DNA of 64,000 bases, from assembly GCA_965262715.1 (NCBI GenBank), contig OZ253553.1, positions 544,001-608,000 of the forward strand, written 5' to 3'. The notes under the pieces were generated by a model. It was not told the origin of the DNA, did not search any database, and worked only from the letters and a program-made list of their open reading frames with translations. Made by a program: the position numbers and the translations under genes. Each line of letters starts with the position of its first letter. Position 1 is the first letter of the stretch. Origin of the DNA: Bdellovibrionales bacterium (GTDB lineage: Bacteria > Bdellovibrionota > Bdellovibrionia > Bdellovibrionales > JAUICD01). Positions 12,380 to 49,361 of this stretch are shown here, piece by piece.

Positions 12380-12479
12380 TATCTTTAAAAAAAGATATTT
12401 AGATATAATTTGACTATTTATATCCTTAAATAAGGTTATTATATATTATTCTATTTGTTTTTATCCTTAAAAAAGGATA
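12380..12479 (+). promoter_or_regulatory. Three HipB-type operators
   Basis: TATCT-N8-AGATA (12380), TATCC-N8-GGTTA (12421) and TATCC-N8-GGATA (12462), spaced 41 bp apart. They match the E. coli HipB operator consensus TATCC-N8-GGATA. Confidence 0.8.
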
Positions 12480-12505
12480 TTATTATAAAAAAAAGGGTTA
12501 TTTAT

Positions 12506-12739
12506 ATGAAAAAAGGTATTGAAGAAACAGAGGTATCAAGATTTGGTTTGTTCATTAAACAAAAGCGTAAAAATAGAGGTATAACTCAAAAGGAGTTAGC
12601 TAGGCATGCAAGGGTCAGTTTTACATTGGTCAATCGTATAGAAAATGGAGATATAAAATTAAATATATCTTCTGTAAATAAAGTTTTGAAAGTTTTTGGA
12701 TGCGCACTTGCCCCTGTTCGTTTAGAGATTAAAGAATGA
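12506..12739 (+). CDS. hipB: XRE-family HTH antitoxin (HipB-like)
   Basis: IKQKRKNRGITQKELARHARVSFTLVNRIENG; ATGA overlap with hipA; ATG 12506 preferred over TTG 12455. Confidence 0.82.
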   Translation: MKKGIEETEVSRFGLFIKQKRKNRGITQKELARHARVSFTLVNRIENGDIKLNISSVNKVLKVFGCALAPVRLEIKE

Positions 12740-14139
12740 AAAATATTGCAAATGAAGAGAATTATATGTCAGAGATAAAAAAAATAATAAATACAAAGAA
12801 GGCTTGGGTTTATTTAAGAGATATTCTAGCAGGGGAGCTTGAAAAATCCGATGAGGCTTCTGTAGTTTTTAAATTCACTTATTTTAAAGATTATTTAGAA
12901 AGTCAAAACCCAGAAATAGCTCGAGCTTTTCCTAAAAGAAAAGAATCTTATATCAGTTCAGATTTACACCCTTTTTTTGATAATCTTATTGTTGAAGGAT
13001 GGTTATTAACATATACAGAAAAACTTTTACATATTCATAAATTAGATCGTTTCAAACTGCTTATGGCTACAGGAAGCGCTCCTATTGGGGCTGTAAGTGT
13101 GAGACCTGTTTATAATCAACAACCTATCAATATGACTGAAGTTCTTTTTAATAAAAACACAGAAGTTCACTTTATTAAAGAACCTAATAAGATGAGAGAT
13201 ACATTTCATTTTTGTCCATCTTGTTTTCGGGAATTAGGAGGGGATGAAGTGCATAGAAAGTGTACTATAGCTATGTGGGGCACAACAAGAAAGTTGAAAT
13301 TAAAAATAAATAAAGATAGTCCTGATGAAATGTTTGGATCTACTATTTATGGAGGTTCTATATCTGGTCATCAAAAAAAGGGAATGTTTAAAATCAACAG
13401 CAGGACAGGTGAATTGGTACCTACACCTGATAGAGCAACTCATATCTTAAAGCCATCTGGACATTTACCAGAGTTGCCAGAAAATGAACATGTCACAATG
13501 GCTATTGCAAAAGCTTTGAAATTTCCTACACCTTCGTTTGATTTGTTGGAATTTGAAGGCATAGGGAGAGTGTTTGCCACTGCTCGCTTTGATCGCAGTT
13601 TGGATGGAATGAGATTGCCATTGATGCAAGAGGATATGTGTCAGGTTATAGGGGTTTCAAGTGATAGAAAATATGATCTAAGTTATGAGAAGATTGCAAA
13701 AGCAATTAGAAAACACAGCTTGGCGCCTTTGGTTGATCTTTATGATTTTTATCGTAGGTTTGTTTTTTGTTATCTTGTGCTTAATGGGGATATGCACTTA
13801 AAAAATTGGTCTTTACTTGAAAGTCAAAAAGAGTTAGGTAGCTTTGTATTAGCGCCCTGTTACGATCTTTTAAATACAAGAATTTTTTTATCAAGAGAGT
13901 TAACGGATATAGCTCTACAGTTGAATGGAAAAGATAGGAATCTTACTAAAAAGGATATTTCCTATTTTGGTAAAGATATTGGTCTTAGTGCTGAAACTAT
14001 TGAACTTATTTTTAGCGAGCTTTCAAGCTGGTTGGAGGTGATTAAAAAATACATAAATTTGTGTTTGCTTAGTAAGAAGTCAAAAGAAGCTTACCTTGAA
14101 GGTGTTTATAAAAGGTATAACATTTTATTAAAGAAATAA
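12736..14139 (+). CDS. hipA: HipA-family Ser/Thr kinase toxin (N-terminal couple_hipA domain + kinase)
   Basis: LHPFFDNLIVEGW, SISGHQKK P-loop, ENEH, EDMCQ, NGDMHLKN and APCYD. Confidence 0.92.
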   Translation: MKNIANEENYMSEIKKIINTKKAWVYLRDILAGELEKSDEASVVFKFTYFKDYLESQNPEIARAFPKRKESYISSDLHPFFDNLIVEGWLLTYTEKLLHIHKLDRFKLLMATGSAPIGAVSVRPVYNQQPINMTEVLFNKNTEVHFIKEPNKMRDTFHFCPSCFRELGGDEVHRKCTIAMWGTTRKLKLKINKDSPDEMFGSTIYGGSISGHQKKGMFKINSRTGELVPTPDRATHILKPSGHLPELPENEHVTMAIAKALKFPTPSFDLLEFEGIGRVFATARFDRSLDGMRLPLMQEDMCQVIGVSSDRKYDLSYEKIAKAIRKHSLAPLVDLYDFYRRFVFCYLVLNGDMHLKNWSLLESQKELGSFVLAPCYDLLNTRIFLSRELTDIALQLNGKDRNLTKKDISYFGKDIGLSAETIELIFSELSSWLEVIKKYINLCLLSKKSKEAYLEGVYKRYNILLKK

Positions 14140-14528
14140 AAAATATCAATTATTATTTATACAAAGTTATTTTCCGGGAAACAGGCAACCCGGCAGTCAG
14201 TTTCCGGGATCCATTCAGTCCATTCTTGAGAGCTAGATTATAGTTTATCTAAAAAGATATAGATGAAACTTTCTACTTTCTTAATTCCTAAATCCCGGAG
14301 TTCAGTTTCACAGAGACCGGATTCCGGGTAAAAAGAAGTTCTAGAAGCCATCTCAAAAATGCAGCTAGAGATAACAATTTTAGAAAAAATACCAGCTTTA
14401 TATTATACAAAGAATTCCATGAGATGGCCTTTACTCAAAATGAATAGAAGACAAGCCTCTCGAGGCAAGCCTTTTTGAGGATTGCCCATGAAATAAATCT
14501 AGGTACTGATCCGATGGCAAGAATAAAG

Positions 14529-17500
14529 TTTCCCTAACATTGTGTTAAGAAACAAGAAGATCCTCCCTACTAAAATGCATTAGCCTTTCTAGGCAGTAAG
14601 CTATTTGCTGACGATGTGAACCGCCTGAGCTGACTACCAGAAAGTCGCCAGAGGCTAGCCTCGAGAGGCGAGATGCATTTTAGAGAAAAAAAAGCAGGTT
14701 CATTTTGAGGAAGACAGCTTTTTTATATAAGAAATTAGAGGTAATAGGTACAAATGTTCATAGACTTTTACTGAAACAGCACGATTCCCTTAACATGATG
14801 TTAAATAATGAGGAGTATCTGGTTTACTAAAATGCATCAGGCTTTCCAGGTAGTCAGCTATTTGCTGACGATGTGAACCGCCTGAGCTGACTACCAGAAA
14901 GTCGCCAGAGGCTCGCCTCGAGAGGCGAGATGCATTTTAGTGAAAAAAAAGCAGGTTTATTTTGAGGAAGACAGCTCTTTTATATAAGAAATTAGAGGTA
15001 ATAGGTACAAACGTTCATAGACTTTTACTGAAACAGCACGATTCCCTTAACATGATGTTAAATAATGAGGAGTATCTGGTTTACTAAAATGCATCAGGCT
15101 TTCTAGGTAGTCAGCTATTTGCTGACGATGTGAACCGCCTGAGCTGACTACCAGAAAGTCGCCAGAGGCTCGCCTCGAGAGGCGAGATGCATTTTAGTGA
15201 AAAAAAAGCAGGTTTATTTTGAGGAAGACAGCTCTTTTATATAAGAAATTAGAGGTAATAGGTACAAACGTTCATAGACTTTTACTGAAACAGCACGATT
15301 CCCTTAACATGATGTTAAATAATGAGGAGTATCTGGTTTACTAAAATGCATCAGGCTTTCTAGGTAGTCAGCTATTTGCTGACGATGTGAACCGCCTGAG
15401 CTGACTACCAGAAAGTCGCCAGAGGCTCGCCTCGAGAGGCGAGATGCATTTTAGTGAAAAAAAAGCAGGTTTATTTTGAGGAAGACAGCTCTTTTATATA
15501 AGAAATTAGAGGTAATAGGTACAAACGTTCATAGACTTTTACTGAAACAGCACGATTCCCTTAACATGATGTTAAATAATGAGGAGTATCTGGTTTACTA
15601 AAATGCATCAGGCTTTCTAGGTAGTCAGCTATTTGCTGACGATGTGAACCGCCTGAGCTGACTACCAGAAAGTCGCCAGAGGCTCGCCTCGAGAGGCGAG
15701 ATGCATTTTAGTGAAAAAAAAGCAGGTTTATTTTGAGGAAGACAGCTCTTTTATATAAGAAATTAGAGGTAATAGGTACAAACGTTCATAGACTTTTACT
15801 GAAACAGCACGATTCCCTTAACATGATGTTAAATAATGAGGAGTATCTGGTTTACTAAAATGCATTAGCCTTTCTAGGCAGTAAGCTATTTGCTGACGAT
15901 GTGAACCGCCTGAGCTGACTACCAGAAAGTCGCCAGAGGCTAGCCTCGAGAGGCGAGATGCATTTTAGAGAAAAAAAAGCAGGTTCATTTTGAGGAAGAC
16001 AGCTTTTTTATATAAGAAATTAGAGGTAATAGGTACAAATGTTCATAGACTTTTACTGAAACAGCACGATTCCCTTAACATGATGTTAAATAATGAGGAG
16101 TATCTGGTTTACTAAAATGCATCAGGCTTTCTAGGTAGTCAGCTATTTGCTGACGATGTGAACCGCCTGAGCTGACTACCAGAAAGTCGCCAGAGGCTCG
16201 CCTCGAGAGGCGAGATGCATTTTAGTGAAAAAAAAGCAGGTTCATTTTGAGGAAGACAGCCCTTTTATATAAGAAATTAGAGGTAATAGGTACAAACGTT
16301 CATAGACTTTTACTGAAACAGCACGATTCCCTTAACATGATGTTAAATAATGAGGAGTATCTGGTTTACTAAAATGCATCAGGCTTTCTAGGTAGTCAGC
16401 TATTTGCTGACGATGTGAACCGCCTGAGCTGACTACCAGAAAGTCGCCAGAGGCTAGCCTCGAGAGGCGAGATGCATTTTAGTGAAAAAAAAGCAGGTTC
16501 ATTTTGAGGAAGACAGCCCTTTTATATAAGAAATTAGAGGTAATAGGTACAAACGTTCATAGACTTTTACTGAAACAGCACGATTCCCTTAACATGATGT
16601 TAAATAATGAGGAGTATCTGGTTTACTAAAATGCATCAGGCTTTCTAGGTAGTCAGCTATTTGCTGACGATGTGAACCGCCTGAGCTGACTACCAGAAAG
16701 TCGCCAGAGGCTAGCCTCGAGAGGCGAGATGCATTTTAGTGAAAAAAAAGCAGGTTCATTTTGAGGAAGACAGCTCTTTTATATAAGAAATTAGAGGTAA
16801 TAGGTACAAACGTTCATAGACTTTTACTGAAACAGCACGATTCCCTTAACATGATGTTAAATAATGAGGAGTATCTCGTTTACTAAAATGCATCAGGCTT
16901 TCTAGGTAGTCAGCTATTTGCTGACGATGTGAACCGCCTGAGCTGACTACCAGAAAGTCGCCAGAGGCTCGCCTCGAGAGGCGAGATGCATTTTAGTGAA
17001 AAAAAAGCAGGTTCATTTTGAGGAAGACAGCCCTTTTATATAAGAAATTAGAGGTAATAGGTACAAACGTTCATAGACTTTTACTGAAACAGCACGATTC
17101 CCTTAACATGATGTTAAATAATGAGGAGTATCTGGTTTACTAAAATGCATCAGGCTTTTTAGGTAGTCAGCTATTTGCTGACGATGTGAACCGCCTGAGC
17201 TGACTACCAGAAAGTCGCCAGAGGCTCGCCTCGAGAGGCGAGATGCATTTTAGTGAAAAAAAAGCAGGTTTATTTTGAGGAAGACAGCTCTTTTATATAA
17301 GAAATTAGAGGTAATAGGTACAAATGTTCATAGACTTTTACTGAAACAGCACGATTCCCTTAACATGATGTTAAATAATGAGGAGTATCTGGTTTACTAA
17401 AATGCATCAGGCTTTCTAGGTAGTCAGCTATTTGCTGACGATGTGAACCGCCTGAGCTGACTACCAGAAAGTCGCCAGAGGCTCGCCTCGAGAGGCGAGA

Positions 17501-18299
17501 TGCATTTTAGTGAAAAAAAAGCAGGTTCATTTTGAGGAAGACAGCTCTTTTATATAAGAAATTAGAGGTAATAGGTACAAACGTTCATAGACTTTTACTG
17601 AAACAGCACGATTCCCTTAACATGATGTTAAATAATGAGGAGTATCTGGTTTACTAAAATGCATCAGGCTTTCTAGGTAGTCAGCTATTTGCTGACGATG
17701 TGAACCGCCTGAGCTGACTACCAGAAAGTCGCCAGAGGCTAGCCTCGAGAGGCGAGATGCATTTTAGTGAAAAAAAAGCAGGTTCATTTTGAGGAAGACA
17801 GCCCTTTTATATAAGAAATTAGAGGTAATAGGTACAAACGTTCATAGACTTTTACTGAAACAGCACGATTCCCTTAACATGATGTTAAATAATGAGGAGT
17901 ATCTGGTTTACTAAAATGCATCAGGCTTTCTAGGTAGTCAGCTATTTGCTGACGATGTGAACCGCCTGAGCTGACTACCAGAAAGTCGCCAGAGGCTCGC
18001 CTCGAGAGGCGAGATGCATTTTAGTGAAAAAAAAGCAGGTTCATTTTGAGGAAGACAGCTCTTTTATATAAGAAATTAGAGGTAATAGGTACAAACGTTC
18101 ATAGACTTTTACTGAAACAGCACGATTCCCTTAACATGATGTTAAATAATGAGGAGTATCTCGTTTACTAAAATGCATCAGGCTTTCTAGGTAGTCAGCT
18201 ATTTGCTGACGATGTGAATCGTCAGGCTGACTACCAGAAAGTCGCCAGTCAGGCTGACTACCAGAAAGTCGCCAGAGGCGAGATGCATTTTAGTGAAAA
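14529..18299 (+). repeat. Non-coding tandem array of 15 copies of a 257-bp structured unit (family D)
   Basis: Marker gctgacgatgtgaa at 14607, 14864, 15121, 15378, 15635, 15892, 16149, 16406, 16663, 16920, 17177, 17434, 17691, 17948 and 18205 (exact 257-bp period). No ORF in the track; no unique spacers. Confidence 0.97.
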
Positions 18300-18375
18300 T
18301 AGTTAGATAAAGTTATGAACCACTGGAAATGTTTATTAAGTTTTTATTTTTGAGACCAGTTCTAATTAAGTTGTA

Positions 18376-18687
18376 TCATGCTACTGTGACAGTTAAGTTA
18401 ATGTGTGCATCTCTTAACTTGTCTTGGAGTGCAAGTTGAATCCAATATGCTTCTGGTTCTCCAATAGCACAAGCAATATTTTTTGCTGTTGTAGGAGATG
18501 GGATCTTCTTTCCTTTCTCAATATCAGAAAGACTTTGAACAGATAGTCCCAATAGAGCAGCACATTTACGTAAGGTTAAATTACGACATTGCCTTTCTGA
18601 AGCAATAGCAGATGCAAAAGTGAGTCTTCCAATATCTCGACTAAGTTCTTTTGTTCCATATTTTATCGTATATTTTTTCTTTGCCAT
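18376..18687 (-). CDS. XRE-family HTH protein (HigA-like antitoxin)
   Basis: LTLRKCAALLGLSVQSLSDIEKGKKIPS...YWIQLALQD. Confidence 0.8.
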   Translation of the reverse strand: MAKKKYTIKYGTKELSRDIGRLTFASAIASERQCRNLTLRKCAALLGLSVQSLSDIEKGKKIPSPTTAKNIACAIGEPEAYWIQLALQDKLRDAHINLTVTVA

Positions 18688-18821: not shown

Positions 18822-19347
18822 CGGAGGCCAGATCCCGGATAAAAAAAGAAACCTTTTGTAAAATATATTGTAACCTCTTGACTATTTGAATAAAAAACAC
18901 ATTCATTTTCCTTAAAATAAACTAACTTCTGTTTCACTAAAATGCATCTGGCCTCTGGCCATTTTCTGGCGATGACCCTGACATGTTTACACTGTCAGTA
19001 TGGTCATCGCCTGGAAAAATTGATGCATTTTAGTAGGGAGGATATCTTCATTGTCTTACGTCATGTTAGGGAAATCCTTGTTGTTTATCAGTCAGCCTGA
19101 CGGGTCGTAGCGTCAGTAAAAAGCTGATTGCCTCAAAAATTCATTTATTTTAAGGAGGGAGATATTCTTTATGTTCTTACATCATGTTAAGGAAAACTTT
19201 CTATAATGTATTTTAAAGATTCATAACTACTTAAACATTTTTCCAAGTTCCCAGAGATCGGATTCCCGGAGGCCATGTCCCGGATAAAAAAAGAAAACTT
19301 TTATAAAATATATTGTAACCCCTTGACTATTTGAATAAAAAACACAT
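18822..19347 (+). repeat. 81-bp direct repeat (18822-18902 and 19267-19347) containing the dnaJ promoter-like motif
   Basis: cggaggcca..tcccggataaaaaaagaaa.ctttt.taaaatatattgtaacc.cttgactatttgaataaaaaacacat occurs twice, 445 bp apart. Confidence 0.85.
18929..19196 (-). repeat. Two family D elements in reverse orientation (18929-19074 complete, 19089-19196 partial)
   Basis: actaaaatgcatc...gatgcattttagt ends; ggcgatgacc/ggtcatcgcc stem; atgttaaggaaa flank. Confidence 0.8.
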
Positions 19348-19349: not shown

Positions 19350-19419
19350 TATAAGAGCGGATGTATCCAAATGGGGTCTATTCTTTCGTCTTATTATAAA
19401 GCAATAAATAGGTTTGAGT

Positions 19420-20547
19420 ATGCAAGAAGATTATTATGATGTTTTAGGTGTTCCTCGTCAGGCTGGGCAGTCGGATATTAAAAAAGCTTACAGGCAGTTA
19501 GCATTAAAGTATCATCCTGATAGAAACCCTAATGACAAGAATGCTGAAGAAAAATTCAAAAAAGCTGCAGAGGCTTATGACGTGCTTGGTAATCCTGAAA
19601 AGCGCAGTCGGTATGATCAATTTGGACATGCTGCATTTCAGCAGACTGGTGGTCAGTATTCTGGATCTATGAATTTAAACGATATATTTTCAAATTTTGG
19701 CGATGTTTTCGAAGACTTTTTCAGCGGAGGTATGGGAGGTGGAAGTTCAAGACAAAGATCAAGATCACACCAAGGGGCAGACCTTCGTTATACATTAGAA
19801 ATTACAATAGAAGATGTCATCAATGGTTTTGAAGAGAGTATCGAGTTTGATTGTGAAGAAAACTGTTTGACATGTGAAGGTAGTGGAGCAGATCCAAAGC
19901 ATGGCTTAGAGATATGTCAAAAGTGTAACGGAACGGGACAAGTTGTTCGTTCTCAAGGTTTTTTTTCTATGGCCTCTACTTGCGCACATTGCAGAGGTCA
20001 AGGCCAGAGAGTTAAATACCCTTGTCATTCTTGTGGAGGGCAGGGCCGATCTGTAAAGCCTAAAAAGGTTGAGGTGAAGGTACCAAAAGGGGTGGATTCA
20101 GGGCTAAAATTAAGATATGAAGGTGAAGGGGAAGGTGGATATAATAAGGGTACTCATGGAGATCTTTATGTGGAAATCCATGTTCTAGACCATAAAGAGT
20201 TTGAAAGAAAAGATGATGATCTCTATGGAGAGGTTCATATCTCATATCTTCAGGCTATTTTAGGGACTCATATTCAGGTCAATACACTTGATGGCAAAAA
20301 GAAGCTTAAAATTCCTTTAGGTACACAACCAAATCAACTGCTCCGGCTCTCTGGCTTAGGCATCCCTCACCTAGACTTAAAAAGCAGGTCTTTTATTAAA
20401 ACCAAAGGACGTGGAGATTTACTTTTTACTGTTTTTGTAGATTTGCCTAAAAAGCCTAAAAAGCAGGAAGAAAAACTTTTAAGACAAATTGCAGAAATGA
20501 AAAAGGAAGATATCAGTGAGTCTCTAGGTTTTCTTGGAAAAAGATAA
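19420..20547 (+). CDS. dnaJ: Chaperone DnaJ
   Basis: J domain with HPD, G/F region and four CxxCxGxG repeats. Confidence 0.97.
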
Positions 20548-20553
20548 GTTATA

Positions 20554-20583
20554 CCTTGACTGATTGAAATTCATAACCACATT
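20554..20583 (+). promoter_or_regulatory. Putative heat-shock (RpoH-like) promoter of dnaK
   Basis: ccttgactgattgaaattcataaccacatt; parallels the dnaJ motif. Confidence 0.45.
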
Positions 20584-20622
20584 ATTTGAGTGACCATAAA
20601 AAACTAAGAAGGAGGATAGAAA

Positions 20623-22569
20623 GTGGGAAGGGTTATCGGAATTGACTTAGGAACAACAAATTCTTGTGTAGCTATTGTTGAAGATGGACAACCTGAGGTA
20701 CTCACAAATCAAGAGGGAGCTCGAACAACACCGTCTGTTGTTGCTTTTACAAAAGAAAATACAAGTTTAGTAGGTCAAATTGCTAAGAGACAATCGGTAA
20801 CAAATCCTGAAAACACTATTTATTCTGCAAAACGATTTATAGGTAAAAACTTTAATGAAGTTAAAAATGAAAAACACAGAATGCCTTATAAGATCATTCA
20901 AAAAGGTGATGGTTGTGCATTTGATATCAAAGGTGAAACCTATACTCCTGAACAAATTTCTTCAATTATTTTACAAAAATTAAAAGCTGCAGCAGAAGAT
21001 TACTTACATGATAAGGTGACAGAAGCGGTGATCACTGTTCCAGCTTATTTTAATGATTCTCAAAGACAGGCTACAAAAGACGCAGGTAAAATTGCAGGCC
21101 TTGAGGTCAAGCGCATTATCAATGAGCCAACGGCTGCTGCTCTTGCTTACGGGTATGGTATTGATAAGAAGAATAATGGCAAGGAGATTAAGAAAGTTAT
21201 TGTATTTGATTTTGGTGGAGGTACTTTTGATATTTCTATTATAGAAATTGATAGTAGCCTTGTAGAAGTTAAGGCTACAAATGGAGATACTCGTTTAGGA
21301 GGAGATGATTTTGATAAAGTTATTTTAGAATGGTTATTTGTCGAGTTTAAAAAAACCAATGGTATTGATCTTTCGACAGATAAAATGGCACTGCAAAGAC
21401 TTAAAGAGGCTACAGAGAAAGCAAAGATTGAATTAAGTGCTGTTATGGAGACAGAGATCAACCTGCCATTTATCACTGCCGATGCTTCAGGTCCAAAGCA
21501 TTTAAATATGAAATTGACTCGATCTAAATTTGAAAGTCTTTCAGAAGATCTTATTCAAAGATCTATTAATTGTTGCAAAATGGCTTTGGAAGATTCTGGG
21601 TTTAAAGTTTCTGAAATTGATGAGGTTTTATTAGTGGGAGGGTCTACTCGTATACCTGCTATTCAAGAAGCCATTAAAGATTTTTTCAAAAAAGAACCTA
21701 ACAAATCAATCAATCCTGATGAAGTTGTTGCATTGGGTGCAGCATTGCAAGGTGGTATCTTATCAAGTGATGTTAAAAATATTTTGTTATTAGATGTCAC
21801 ACCTCTATCTTTAGGTATAGAAACATTAGGAGGTGTTTGTACAAGATTGATTGATAGAAATACAACAATTCCGACTAAAAAATCTCAGGTGTTTTCTACA
21901 TCAACGGACAATCAACCTAGTGTCATTGTTCACATTTTGCAGGGTGAACGTAATATGGCCACAGATAATAAGTCATTAGGGCAATTTGAGCTTTCTGGTA
22001 TTGCTTCTGCGCCTAGAGGTGTACCTCAGATTGAAGTCAATTTTGATATTGATGCTAATGGTATTCTTAATGTGAGCGCAAAAGACCTGCAATCGGGTAA
22101 GGAGCAATCTATACGTATTACATCTCGTTCAAATTTATCACAGGAAGATATTAAAAAGATGATTGATGATGCAGAAGCTTATGCAGAGGCAGATAAAAAT
22201 CATAAAGAAATGGTGGAGTTAAGAAATAATTTAGACCATACTATTTATCAGACAGAAAAACTTGTAAGTAAAAACCCAGATAAAATTTCAAAAGATATTC
22301 AGTCTCAAGTAGAGGAGGAAATAAAACTTGCGAAGGATCTGATATCATCTTCATCTAATGATAAGAAAAAGCTCTCTTCTGTTTCTGATAGTCTTACAAA
22401 ACTTTCTCAAAAAGTAACAGAGGAAATTTATAAAAACACTTCAAAAGAAGATACTCAAAAACAAAAGGCATCTTCATCTGAAGAGAAAAAAGATGCTAAA
22501 AAGGGTAAAGAGGATGTAATTGATGCAGATTTTAAAGATGTCGAAATAGATGCTAAGGATGTCAATTAA
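20623..22569 (+). CDS. dnaK: Chaperone DnaK
   Basis: [25 protein letters not shown] and [11 protein letters not shown]. Confidence 0.99.
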
Positions 22570-48806: not shown

Positions 48807-48887
48807 AAACATAAGTCACAGTAGGAACGTGGGAGGAAACTGGCAATCCGGCGGCAGACTGCTGTAGGGAACTAATTCCCAGCTTGC

Positions 48888-49297
48888 CAGAGGCTTGCCT
48901 CGAGAGGCTTGCCTTGAGAGGTTCGCCTTGAGAAGGTCAGAGGTATTTTTAGGGATACAGCTTTTAACATTGTGTCAAAGAACGAAAAGAGTCTCTTTCC
49001 TCAAAATGAACAGATTTTTGAGGCGGTTAGCATTTTATTGAAGGCGTGAGCCTTCATGCTGACCGCCAAAAAATGGTCAGAGGCTCATCTCAAGAGACCA
49101 GCTCATTTTTAGAGGAAGAGGTAGTAAGAGGAACTTTCCCTTAACATCATATTAAAAAACGAGGGGAGTCTCCCTAGTAAAAATGAACGGATTTTTGAGA
49201 CGGTTAGCATTTTATTGAAGGCGTGAGCCTTCATGCTGACCGCCAAAAAATGGTCAGAGGCTCACCTCAAGAGACTAGTTCATTTTTAGTGAAACAG
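48888..49297 (+). repeat. Mini tandem array of family D (one partial and two complete units, 177-bp period)
   Basis: Two copies of cggttagcattttattgaaggc-gtga-gccttcatgctgaccg with aaaatgaac/ttcatttt ends and a ttaacat flank. Confidence 0.85.
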
Positions 49298-49361
49298 TAT
49301 TTGACTTTTTAACGGTACAGTTTATATATTCAATAGGTGTTTTATTTATAGGGTACTTTCA

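Follow-up and report, generated by a model that had tools for sequence, protein, structure and literature searches.

The window, by which we mean the whole 64,000-nucleotide stretch analysed here, belongs to a Bdellovibrionales genome (G000) that consists of a single 2.94-Mb contig. Between a hipBA pair and a downstream HTH gene it holds a ~330-bp carrier element bounded by terminal inverted repeats (TIRs), with hairpin elements nested inside; a tandem array with a 257-bp period sits wholly within the resulting larger TIR-bounded element, which runs from 14342 to 18364. The features to which we refer, by position in the window, are as follows.

12455-14139, + strand: HTH (HipB-like) gene and hipA, a toxin-antitoxin pair upstream of the array (Pfam HTH_3, 2.7e-12; HipA_C, 2e-45; Couple_hipA, 3.1e-19).
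14342-14361, + strand: left TIR, TAGAAGCCATCTCAAAAATG, of the ~330-bp carrier ('HT') element, placed by the sharp ends in an alignment of seven simple carriers.
14342-14528, + strand: carrier head, including the left arm of the hairpin core native to the carrier, broken up by nested insertions (BLAST of head and tail against the genome; simple carriers and composite loci compared).
14529-14567, + strand: left module (TTTCCCTAACATTGTGTTAAG...) belonging to the first, core-A-type hairpin element (nhmmer match at 14524-14695, model positions 8-180).
14568-18248, + strand: tandem array of 14.3 x 257 bp (TRF, unit table, segment-wise genome copy numbers, comparison with the simple carrier).
14568-14824, + strand: unit 1, with a recombinant core whose first ~38 nt are A-type and whose remainder is B-type (alignment with A cores from four other loci and with unit 3).
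15853-16109, + strand: unit 6, a copy of the edge recombinant inside the array (D(1,6)=0 in the matrix of pairwise differences).
18166-18299, + strand: terminal partial unit, with a B-type core of a different variant (direct sequence reading).
18300-18364, + strand: carrier tail, ending in the right TIR (…TATTTTTGAGACCAGTTCTA; BLAST, simple-carrier alignment, sequence).
18376-18687, - strand: small HTH_3 protein downstream (Pfam HTH_3, 4e-11).
18926-19203, - strand: two more copies of the hairpin family just downstream, in the orientation opposite to the array (nhmmer).
48884-49298, + strand: three adjacent family copies, one of them partial (nhmmer; the two full copies 80% alike).

TRF reported the array at 14568-18248 with a period of 257, 14.3 copies, 98% matches, 0% indels and a score of 7103. 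The preliminary description, made from the letters of the window, had counted 15 units of exactly 257 bp; the period is indeed exact, but the count comes to 14 full units followed by a partial one, whose core, the fifteenth, closes the array at 18166-18299 and contains a 27-bp x 2 internal duplication at 18221-18275 (TRF). When the 14 full units are cut in register, each departs from unit 3 at 0-9 of its 257 positions. They abut without unique spacers, as had been stated, which together with the lack of a Cas protein among the nine neighbouring ORFs speaks against a CRISPR array. The same nine ORFs, scanned against Pfam, include neither cas genes nor an integrase, and no ORF of at least 50 aa lies between 14140 and 18375, both in keeping with the earlier account. 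No tRNA was found, and no link was found between the hipBA pair and the array. The head-to-tail units, constant 257-bp period, ordered variants and higher-order register are those of a VNTR or satellite-like locus.

Each unit is composed of one ~165-bp three-way-junction hairpin repeat and 72 bp of the second, TIR-bounded ~330-bp repeat that hosts it. Unit positions 1-122 form the three-way-junction core, positions ~127-198 are the 72 bp of carrier-internal sequence and include a right-end remnant of the carrier core, positions ~199-213 are a solo right-end motif, and positions ~214-257 make up the following element's left module. Outside the array, a BLAST search of the genome with the unit returned 336 HSPs, with coverage of 120-200x for the core and ~94x for the left module and only 20-45x for the middle 72 bp, which correspond to the interior of the carrier in seven aligned simple copies. 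Two extra end-like motifs had been noticed outside the core; both are present, but as ends they belong elsewhere, one being the right end of the carrier's own hairpin core and the other the solo right end of another copy. In the seven aligned carriers TAGAAGCCATCTCAAAAATG pairs with the reverse complement of ...TTTTTGAGACCGGTTCTA; the left TIR motif occurs at 186 genome sites at ≤4 mismatches, the carrier tail is common to >20 other loci at 84-95% identity, and the flanks of the seven simple carriers display no consistent target-site duplication, with TA readable in some. The two ends of the ~165-bp hairpin element, TTTCCTTAACAT... and ...GAAACAG, are asymmetric, and the element has no TIRs beyond its own stem. 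Its left module, for which a left-end logo was built on 362 sites, contains a conserved palindrome-like TTAACAT..TGTTAA and TTTCCTTAACAT, the most conserved stretch of the family.

The fold of the unit is as first proposed, with a core closed by ACUAAAAUGCAUC/GAUGCAUUUUAGU that holds a long inner stem and the CUCGCCUCGAGAGGCGAG hairpin. For the + strand the folding energy of the unit is -74.5 kcal/mol (z -4.05; none of 200 shuffles did as well) and for the - strand -72.6 kcal/mol (z -4.77); a terminator scan found one weak terminator-like hairpin per unit. Across the family this fold is strongly preserved through compensatory changes, as evidenced by pairing in 94.5% of cells compared with 35-48% in shifted controls, by 1813 double-change cells at 37 pairs in 242 distinct G000 copies compared with 125-224 in shifted controls, and by compensatory changes in 27 of 40 pairs across G000, its congener G001 and contigs of a third bin, G004. 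G:T outnumbers A:C in the family stems (270 versus 161), exceeding it in 27 of 37 pairs with the reverse in seven. Fold loss in the array units is ruled out, given that ordinary units have one of 37 consensus pairs broken against a family median of two; only both recombinant units reach three, which in unit 1 is two beyond the single pair broken in all array units.

The hairpin repeat is present in ~494 copies, amounting to 2.2% of the genome, and 480 of these lie outside ORFs of at least 110 aa. G000 contains 45 arrays with a period of at least 100 and at least 90% matches; 29 are non-coding, and 27 of the 29 hold family copies, all in direct orientation, the 14.3-unit array being the largest. 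Family arrays elsewhere have periods of 156-431 bp with differing filler sequence, and several arrays in G000 are 99-100% identical. The earlier label of an undescribed system must be narrowed in this light: the family is highly structured and lacks a match in Rfam, in plasmid and phage collections or in the literature searched, but the array is one of 27 built on one dispersed repeat and not a separate system.

Family copies cluster head-to-tail, far more than tail-to-tail. Neighbouring copies share their orientation in 365 cases versus 128 in opposite orientation, and within 300 bp the counts are 223 versus 29. Adjacent full-length copies that share their orientation and lie within 300 bp form 106 pairs, 61 of them at least 95% identical, which indicates local duplication. 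Twelve of the 20 abutting full pairs (gap ≤30) are, on the other hand, <85% identical, and 11 of these 12 have a closer relative >5 kb away, implying that independent copies were placed head-to-tail; at the junctions the right end ...ACAG is followed, after 0-15 nt, by TTTCCTTAACAT. A 177-bp-period array that had been reported elsewhere in the window turned out to be the three adjacent copies at 48884-49298, whose starts are 164 bp apart, which are 80% alike and for which TRF made no call.

From these sequence comparisons we propose that the array is a 257-bp segment of a nested composite of two non-coding repeat families, amplified most likely by unequal homologous recombination between two same-orientation ~165-bp hairpin copies 257 bp apart, and we put the probability of this reading at about 0.65. 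G000 carries a matching series of loci, with the carrier alone at seven loci, the carrier with core A at 345k and 791k, the carrier with cores A and B 257 bp apart at 91.9k and 699k, and a second locus with the 257-bp unit (3.2 copies at 1620217-1621026, 97-99% identical to the 14.3-unit array). Because diverged copies lie head-to-tail far more than tail-to-tail, same-orientation insertion beside an existing copy would be the likely source of the starting dimer; a first unequal exchange (or slippage) could then use the two cores as direct repeats, and further unequal exchange, including multi-unit offsets, would expand and homogenise the array. The array itself begins and finishes within a family copy. 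Units 1 and 6 are identical at all 257 positions, units 8 and 13 and units 7 and 10 are further identical pairs, and the mean unit difference is minimal at a 5-unit shift (2.44; the remaining shifts between 1 and 8 give 3.6-4.6). The recurrence of the unit 1 recombinant as unit 6, together with the 5-unit register, makes unequal homologous recombination the best reading of the array, in preference to rolling-circle copying or an array of RNA genes.

We expect the array to be 'bacterial satellite DNA', neutral or slightly costly, and not a gene; it probably has no function of its own. The hairpin element is probably a selfish repeat recognised via its fold as a single-stranded nucleic acid. The genome would then keep each step in the making of such arrays, from one nested repeat up to 14 units, and the birth of satellite DNA from selfish repeats would be traceable in 2.9 Mb. 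For practical purposes, we suggest annotating the array, like the 26 others, as amplified repeats and not as novel RNA genes or defence loci.

Exchange between flanking copies cannot account for every array, since only 11 of 28 family-holding arrays begin and finish within a family copy. Eight of the 28 have a boundary at the element right end and a micro-array of the right-end motif alone exists (25 bp x ~14). Slippage or a site-specific process associated with this end may play a part. A bolder proposal, which we regard as unlikely, makes the three-way-junction element actively mobile: recognised by its fold, it would insert in one orientation beside its own kind via an enzyme outside the tested transposase families, and a site-specific event at its conserved right end (...GAAACAG) would directly trigger local re-copying; if so, the 27 arrays, including the 3.7-kb one, would be by-products of a new transposition chemistry making satellite DNA in a bacterial chromosome.

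No tested transposase family (Y1_Tnp, PF07282, DDE_3, IS110, RVT_1) co-occurs with the repeat in both carrier genomes. PF01797 (Y1) matched once in G000, in an IS200-like gene whose ends and flanking hairpins bear no relation to the family, and had no match in G001 or G004; the only ORFs matching PF07282 (TnpB-type zinc ribbon), of 1343 and 1365 aa, are not of IS size; none of five genomes gave a match to DDE_3 (IS630), IS110 was found in neither G000 nor G001, and reverse transcriptase (RVT_1) in G000 and not in G001. A search for Y2_Tnp (IS91) returned no match, but its control was equally silent and the search is hence uninformative. Twelve intervals bounded by TIR-like sites contained no transposase between inverted ends and no cognate IS. 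An IS200/IS605-derived palindrome-associated element was rejected, there being no Y1 TnpA/TnpB with matching subterminal hairpins, and no replichore pattern, the test for lagging-strand transposition of the IS200/IS605 kind, was evident in the orientation of family copies.

This survey also bears on whether the array is a concatemer produced by the element's own mobility, with a small unit inserting repeatedly beside its own right end, or being copied by rolling circle, to give head-to-tail copies. The orientation bias, the diverged abutting pairs with closer relatives at a distance, the ...ACAG junctions and the right-end boundaries are what such a process might leave, but the 257-bp period holds 72 bp of carrier sequence outside the ~165-bp element, other loci preserve a precursor state of exactly two cores separated by one period, the recombinant unit and its 5-unit offset indicate homologous exchange, and the Y1, DDE_3, IS110 and reverse transcriptase results supply no shared enzyme. 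We consider the concatemer rather unlikely; a rolling-circle or self-insertion origin, one of two offered in the preliminary description, fits the array poorly, and what is kept of it is same-orientation insertion beside an existing copy.

The other proposal, that the 14 units are transcribed and work as structured RNAs or as elements in RNA stability or processing, appears improbable. The preserved fold, the G:T excess and a sense bias in co-directional intergenic regions (176 copies sense, 100 antisense) leave an RNA-level role of the elements, and hence of the array, compatible with the data, and sense copies lie between rpsQ and rplN, where co-transcription would be expected. Nothing array-specific favours a polycistronic RNA array, however: promoter-like sites are at chance (3 versus 3.1 expected), both strands fold about equally well, the recombinant units were retained and re-copied in spite of their two extra broken pairs, and the other arrays differ in period and filler. 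The array is also missing from the congener, in which dnaJ-dnaK is kept and no array lies upstream at the syntenic site. In the 64-kb window every Rfam family stays below its gathering score, and at E≤5 the interval 14300-15100 gave only four weak matches of 21.8-23.2 bits against cut-offs of 50-80, the best at 23.2 against 65.2.

A DNA-level function, in which, for example, iterated protein-binding sites or cruciforms would serve nucleoid organisation, partition or replication control, could be read from the left module, of which each unit offers one site, comprising TTAACAT..TGTTAA together with the family's best-conserved stretch; yet the same module stands at ~360 dispersed sites, follows no replichore pattern, has no identified partner protein and is not kept as an array in the congener, and we hold this role to be very improbable.

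The copy number of the array is real and has support beyond the assembly itself. Among the short-read unitigs of run X1 the array-specific pieces have depths of 260.7 and 266.3, compared with 14.8 and 12.8 for the unique flanks (~18-fold), and in run X4, from another study, 33.2 compared with 2-4.07 (8-16 times), where ~18-22 genome copies of array-specific words are expected. That an assembler over-expanded a repeat is scarcely credible against these depths, the ordered variants among the units and the single 2.94-Mb contig, even though no contig spans the array in four runs, all of short-read contigs, and several G000 arrays are 99-100% identical. No read or contig displays a gain or loss of units here; joints in the short-read contigs have other letters between their two sides and match other repeat copies, and they were not taken as variants of the array locus.

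Long-period non-coding tandem arrays are rare in bacterial chromosomes. Among the closest parallels to the hairpin family are the REP, BIME and REPIN repeats of enterobacteria and Pseudomonas, which are associated with RAYT transposases and thought to be recognised as folded single strands. Like them, the family is intergenic, non-coding and present in hundreds of clustered copies whose fold is kept by compensatory changes. The element here is, however, a ~165-nt three-way junction with asymmetric ends and not a ~20-40-nt palindrome, its copies lie head-to-tail where REP and BIME form inverted doublets or alternating arrangements, and no RAYT was found, the single IS200-like Y1 of G000 having unrelated ends and G001 having none. 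We thus did not assign the family to REP/REPIN with RAYT, having found neither short inverted doublets nor a co-occurring Y1 flanked by the repeats. The Rickettsia palindromic elements are hairpin-forming selfish repeats of ~100-150 bp confined to a narrow lineage, as this family is, but they often lie in frame inside genes, whereas the copies here are nearly all outside ORFs and form arrays. BOX elements of Streptococcus pneumoniae and MIRU-VNTR of mycobacteria are modular intergenic repeats with periods of 45-100 bp, some inside operons. They share with the present family an internally repeated module whose copy number differs between close relatives, as in the family array between rpsQ and rplN (4.0 units in G000 versus 1.9 in a near-identical contig of the G004 bin), but here the periods are 156-431 bp and each unit is a full ~165-nt folded element plus unrelated filler.

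The carrier, by comparison, resembles bacterial MITEs such as Correia, RUP and Nezha, reviewed in Delihas 2011 (PMC3184786), in its ~20-bp TIRs, ~330-bp length, non-coding sequence, many copies and acceptance of nested insertions; it differs in that none of the 12 TIR-bounded intervals yielded a cognate IS sharing these TIRs and no clear target-site duplication is seen, and the likeness does not extend to the nested hairpin element, which has no TIRs beyond its own stem. The route that we favour, from two same-orientation copies to an array, is the one described for Drosophila, where insertion-site preference makes tandem dimers of transposable elements that expand to satellites, Hobo reaching ~16 copies (McGurk & Barbash, bioRxiv 10.1101/158386). 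Two same-orientation cores 257 bp apart would here have led to 14.3 units; unlike the Drosophila case, the setting is a bacterial chromosome of 2.9 Mb, with non-autonomous units and a period that takes in carrier sequence.

The repeat family is, as far as we found, undescribed: we found no publication on interspersed repeats in Bdellovibrionales, and none describing the family among the matches listed for MITEs and tandem arrays in bacterial genomes. A distant-mode search of plasmid and phage collections with window positions 14338-15100 gave no match, and JGI metagenome contigs gave 0 matches to an array-specific 29-mer and 0 to the left-module pattern. A pattern scan of genome contigs returned at least 100 stretches; among the matches listed, 48 were singletons in unrelated taxa, none of which was confirmed by the family HMM, and the other 52 were in G001, all 52 confirmed. 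The family is present in three of the 121 genomes of the order that were searched, namely G000, G001 and G004, and, being fold-preserved and restricted to this lineage with no co-occurring tested transposase, it offers a useful case for how such elements move. G004 is ruled out as an independent second genus with the family, all of its matches being on contigs C11, C1 and C4, which are probably mis-binned. The L14 of C11 is 98% identical to that of G000 and the bin holds a second L14 at 78%, indicating that C11 probably does not belong to it.

The dominant tandem array of the window runs from 14568 to 18248 with a period of 257 bp, 14.3 copies, 98% matches and no indels (TRF), and no ORF of at least 50 aa was found between 14140 and 18375. 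The preliminary description of this locus, made from the sequence alone, had it as a non-coding, highly structured array of 15 units; the period and the non-coding character hold, while the count becomes 14 full units, which when cut in register differ from unit 3 (the reference) at 0-9 positions, and a partial fifteenth core. The unit folds as described on either strand, at -74.5 kcal/mol (z -4.05) on the plus strand and about as well on the minus strand (-72.6, z -4.77). No tRNA was found at the array, and the Rfam search that the same description had proposed returned zero families at threshold and just four matches at E<=5 (21.8-23.2 bits). The entire array lies inside a carrier, a repeat bounded by terminal inverted repeats (TIRs), which occupies a convergent gap with hipA on one side and an opposite-strand HTH gene on the other:

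12455-14139, hipB-like HTH gene and hipA (HipA_C 2e-45), directly upstream of the carrier
14342-18364, start and end of the carrier enclosing the array
18166-18299, partial fifteenth core, which closes the array and has its own 27-bp x 2 duplication
downstream of the array, small opposite-strand HTH gene, followed by dnaJ and dnaK

The dnaJ gene stands immediately upstream of dnaK on the same strand (19414-22569), an order kept in the congener G001. The window occupies C1:544001-608000 of the genome under study (G000), a single contig of 2.94 Mb with 33.6% G+C. No short-read contig spans the whole array. Unitig depth in the short-read run X1 was 260.7 and 266.3 for array-specific pieces versus 14.8 and 12.8 for unique flanks, and in X4, from another study, 33.2 versus 2-4.07. 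Array-specific words occur in ~18-22 copies in the assembly (14 in the window array, 3 in a second array and several singles), and the depth ratio is therefore consistent with the assembly.

A BLAST comparison of one unit with the genome gave 336 HSPs outside the array, and their distribution along the unit revealed a mosaic of two dispersed repeats. Positions 1-122, the core, were covered 120-200 times and positions 218-250 ~94-fold, with a mere 20-45-fold coverage of the middle, at about 125-215. The core belongs to a hairpin element of ~165 bp, for which iterated nhmmer recovered 494 copies (261 on the plus and 233 on the minus strand) spanning 64,817 bases, or 2.2% of the genome. The element opens with a conserved left module (TTTCCTTAACAT..TGTnAA), continues as a long hairpin and finishes in ...TTTTAGTGAAACAG, with conservation lost abruptly at both ends. 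The middle of the unit is part of the carrier, ~330 bp long with TIRs of ~20 bp (TAGAAGCCATCTCAAAAATG). Seven simple copies can be aligned over their whole length and have unrelated flanks, and the genome holds 186 TIR-like sites at no more than 4 mismatches. Two further motifs, previously taken to be end-like, proved to be right ends: one (…ATTCATTTTGAGGAAGACAG) belongs to the hairpin core of the carrier itself, and the other is the solo right end of another copy.

Earlier states of the array persist elsewhere in the genome. Seven loci have just the carrier; at two others (345k and 791k) a single type-A core is nested in it, and at two more (91.9k and 699k) it holds cores A and B in one orientation, spaced by exactly one period. 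The last of these states is a second array of 3.2 units on the minus strand (1620217-1621026) that is 97-99% identical to the window array. Unit 1 of the window array is a recombinant, its left arm being A-type for ~38 nt, with four diagnostic bases common to the A cores at all four other loci, and B-type thereafter, with two extra stem pairs broken. Units 1 and 6 are identical across the full 257 bp, as are units 8 and 13 and units 7 and 10, and the mean difference between units is minimal at a shift of five (2.44 versus 3.6-4.6 for the other shifts from 1 to 8). Given this re-copied edge unit and the multi-unit register, we therefore read the array as an expansion from two direct repeats 257 bp apart, driven by unequal homologous exchange, with a probability of roughly 0.65; the exchange itself we infer from the sequence. 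The two direct repeats would have seeded the expansion, and exchange would have re-copied the recombinant edge unit into the interior, leaving the multi-unit register. The main alternatives are mobility-linked copying at the right end of the element and a role at the RNA level. The concatemer proposed earlier fits poorly in either of its forms, since rolling-circle copying of one template would leave neither an interior recombinant copy nor a multi-unit register, and serial insertion of the hairpin element would not do so either, its ~165 bp not matching the period.

The window array has counterparts across the genome, where 45 arrays have a period of at least 100 bp and at least 90% matches (TRF). 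Family copies, in direct orientation every time, are present in 27 of the 29 that are non-coding; these sibling arrays have periods of 156 to 431 bp and up to 8.6 copies, the window array being the largest. Other large non-coding family arrays are:

G000:C1:858218-861235, 431 bp x 7.0 (100% identity)
G000:C1:2868172-2870190, 235 bp x 8.6
G000:C1:86510-88082, 231 bp x 6.8

Neighbouring family copies share their orientation in 365 cases versus 128 in opposition, and within 300 bp in 223 versus 29. Among 106 adjacent same-orientation full-length pairs, 61 are at least 95% identical, which indicates local duplication, and 37 are under 85% identical; for 36 of the 37 a more similar copy lies over 5 kb away, which marks them as independent copies set side by side. 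Head-to-tail junctions read …ACAG, then 0-15 nt, then TTTCCTTAACAT. The near-identical and the diverged pairs therefore point to two processes, same-orientation placement beside an existing copy, which would yield dimers, and local amplification, which would expand them. The same dimer-to-satellite route is proposed by McGurk and Barbash (bioRxiv 10.1101/158386) for transposon-derived satellites in Drosophila. By TRF boundaries, which are approximate, only 11 of 28 family-holding arrays both start and end inside a family copy, and in 8 of 28 one boundary coincides with the right end of the element. At G000:C1:2908425-2908752, outside the window, a full family copy is followed by a micro-array in which its final 25 nt alone (CGAGATGCATTTTAGTGAAAAAAGA) recur ~14 times in tandem. 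A further source of duplication may be linked to the right end, through slippage at the base of the hairpin or through a site-specific nick.

The hairpin element has a consensus fold of 37 pairs, computed with RNAalifold from 242 distinct full-length copies: a three-way junction in which an outer stem encloses a small hairpin and a long inner stem, the latter capped by an apical hairpin. Canonical pairs fill 94.5% of cells versus 35-48% with partners slid by 1-3 columns, and double changes 1813 cells versus 125-224. The same fold came from aligning 40 copies across genomes (8 from the window, 30 from G001 and 2 from a contig of G004, a genome bin of the same order), with compensatory changes in 27 of 40 pairs. 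G:T exceeds A:C by 270 to 161 and is the more frequent at 27 of the 37 pairs (A:C at 7), an excess that favours the strand as written as the folding strand, whether as RNA or as single-stranded DNA. Since the copies share ancestry, none of these counts amounts to a probability. Copies lie outside ORFs of at least 110 aa in 480 of 494 cases, and in co-directional intergenic regions 176 are sense versus 100 antisense; no replichore bias of the copies was seen. A sense array of four family copies (201 bp x 4.0) sits in the rpsQ-rplN gap (G000:C1:2842702-2843520, outside the window; L016:2935-3322), with the last ~45 nt of rpsQ inside every unit and a different element variant in unit 3. A near-identical contig in the G004 bin has 1.9 units and one more copy there, and G001 has a ~25-bp spacer without the element.

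The family was present in 3 of 41 genomes by BLAST with the unit. When 121 genomes of the order were searched with a covariance model derived from the 40-copy alignment, three had it: G000, G001 and G004. The G004 matches are confined to three short contigs, C11, C1 and C4. This bin holds two L14 genes, that on C11 98% identical to the G000 gene and that on C14 78%, so C11, and with it C1 and C4, probably derives from a close relative of G000 and is in the wrong bin, and we rejected these matches as the bin's own. Across 185,579 species genomes, a search by pattern gave at least 100 matching stretches; 52 were in the G001 record, all confirmed by the family HMM, which confirmed none of the other 48 listed, singletons elsewhere. 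In JGI metagenome contigs, two scans gave no match. The survey of relatives suggested earlier did uncover one array: the G001 loci also form head-to-tail clusters, and one of these loci has an array of 182 bp x 2.5 at 98% identity.

In profile searches for a mobilising enzyme, PF01797 (Y1) matched one IS200-like gene of G000 and nothing in G001 or G004; the hairpins beside that gene bear no relation to the family. PF07282 matched solely within ORFs of 1343 and 1365 aa, DDE_3 and IS110 were not found in the genomes that carry the family, and a reverse transcriptase was present in G000 and not found in G001 or G004. The Y2 profile had no match, but its control was likewise silent. No transposase lay between inverted ends in any of twelve intervals delimited by TIR-like sites. 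Putative transposases, in large ORFs of ~510-553 aa, lie between copies of the carrier TIR-like motif that are in direct rather than inverted orientation, and may have inserted into carrier elements:

G000:C1:517395-520029
G000:C1:1496338-1500036
G000:C1:2524508-2526686

In kind the hairpin family is familiar, resembling the small structured selfish intergenic repeats REP/REPIN, MITEs, BOX and RPE. It failed the defining tests of REPIN/RAYT, and likewise those for classical MITEs that have a cognate IS. Rfam has no entry matching it, and no paper describing it was found among those listed. What had been put forward as a candidate undescribed system is more aptly called the largest satellite-like amplification within an undescribed repeat family. 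Unusual are its strong head-to-tail clustering, the many long-period arrays that it seeds, and the full series of intermediate states within one genome.

Other repeats that TRF shows in G000 include five CRISPR-like arrays of repeats and spacers, their periods 60-75 bp and the largest with ~58 repeats:

G000:C1:482275-483087
G000:C1:1355418-1357173
G000:C1:2351392-2352436
G000:C1:2450825-2451225
G000:C1:2603446-2607152

Tandem repeats with a tRNA-like or partial-tRNA consensus occur at G000:C1:2198524-2198951 and 1103547-1104407 (periods 89 and ~227 bp). Coding tandem repeats comprise many of 153-bp (51-aa) period in cysteine-rich ORFs (for example C1:62521-63945, 73813-75547 and 415233-416796), as well as ankyrin-like 99-bp and TPR-like 102-bp repeats.
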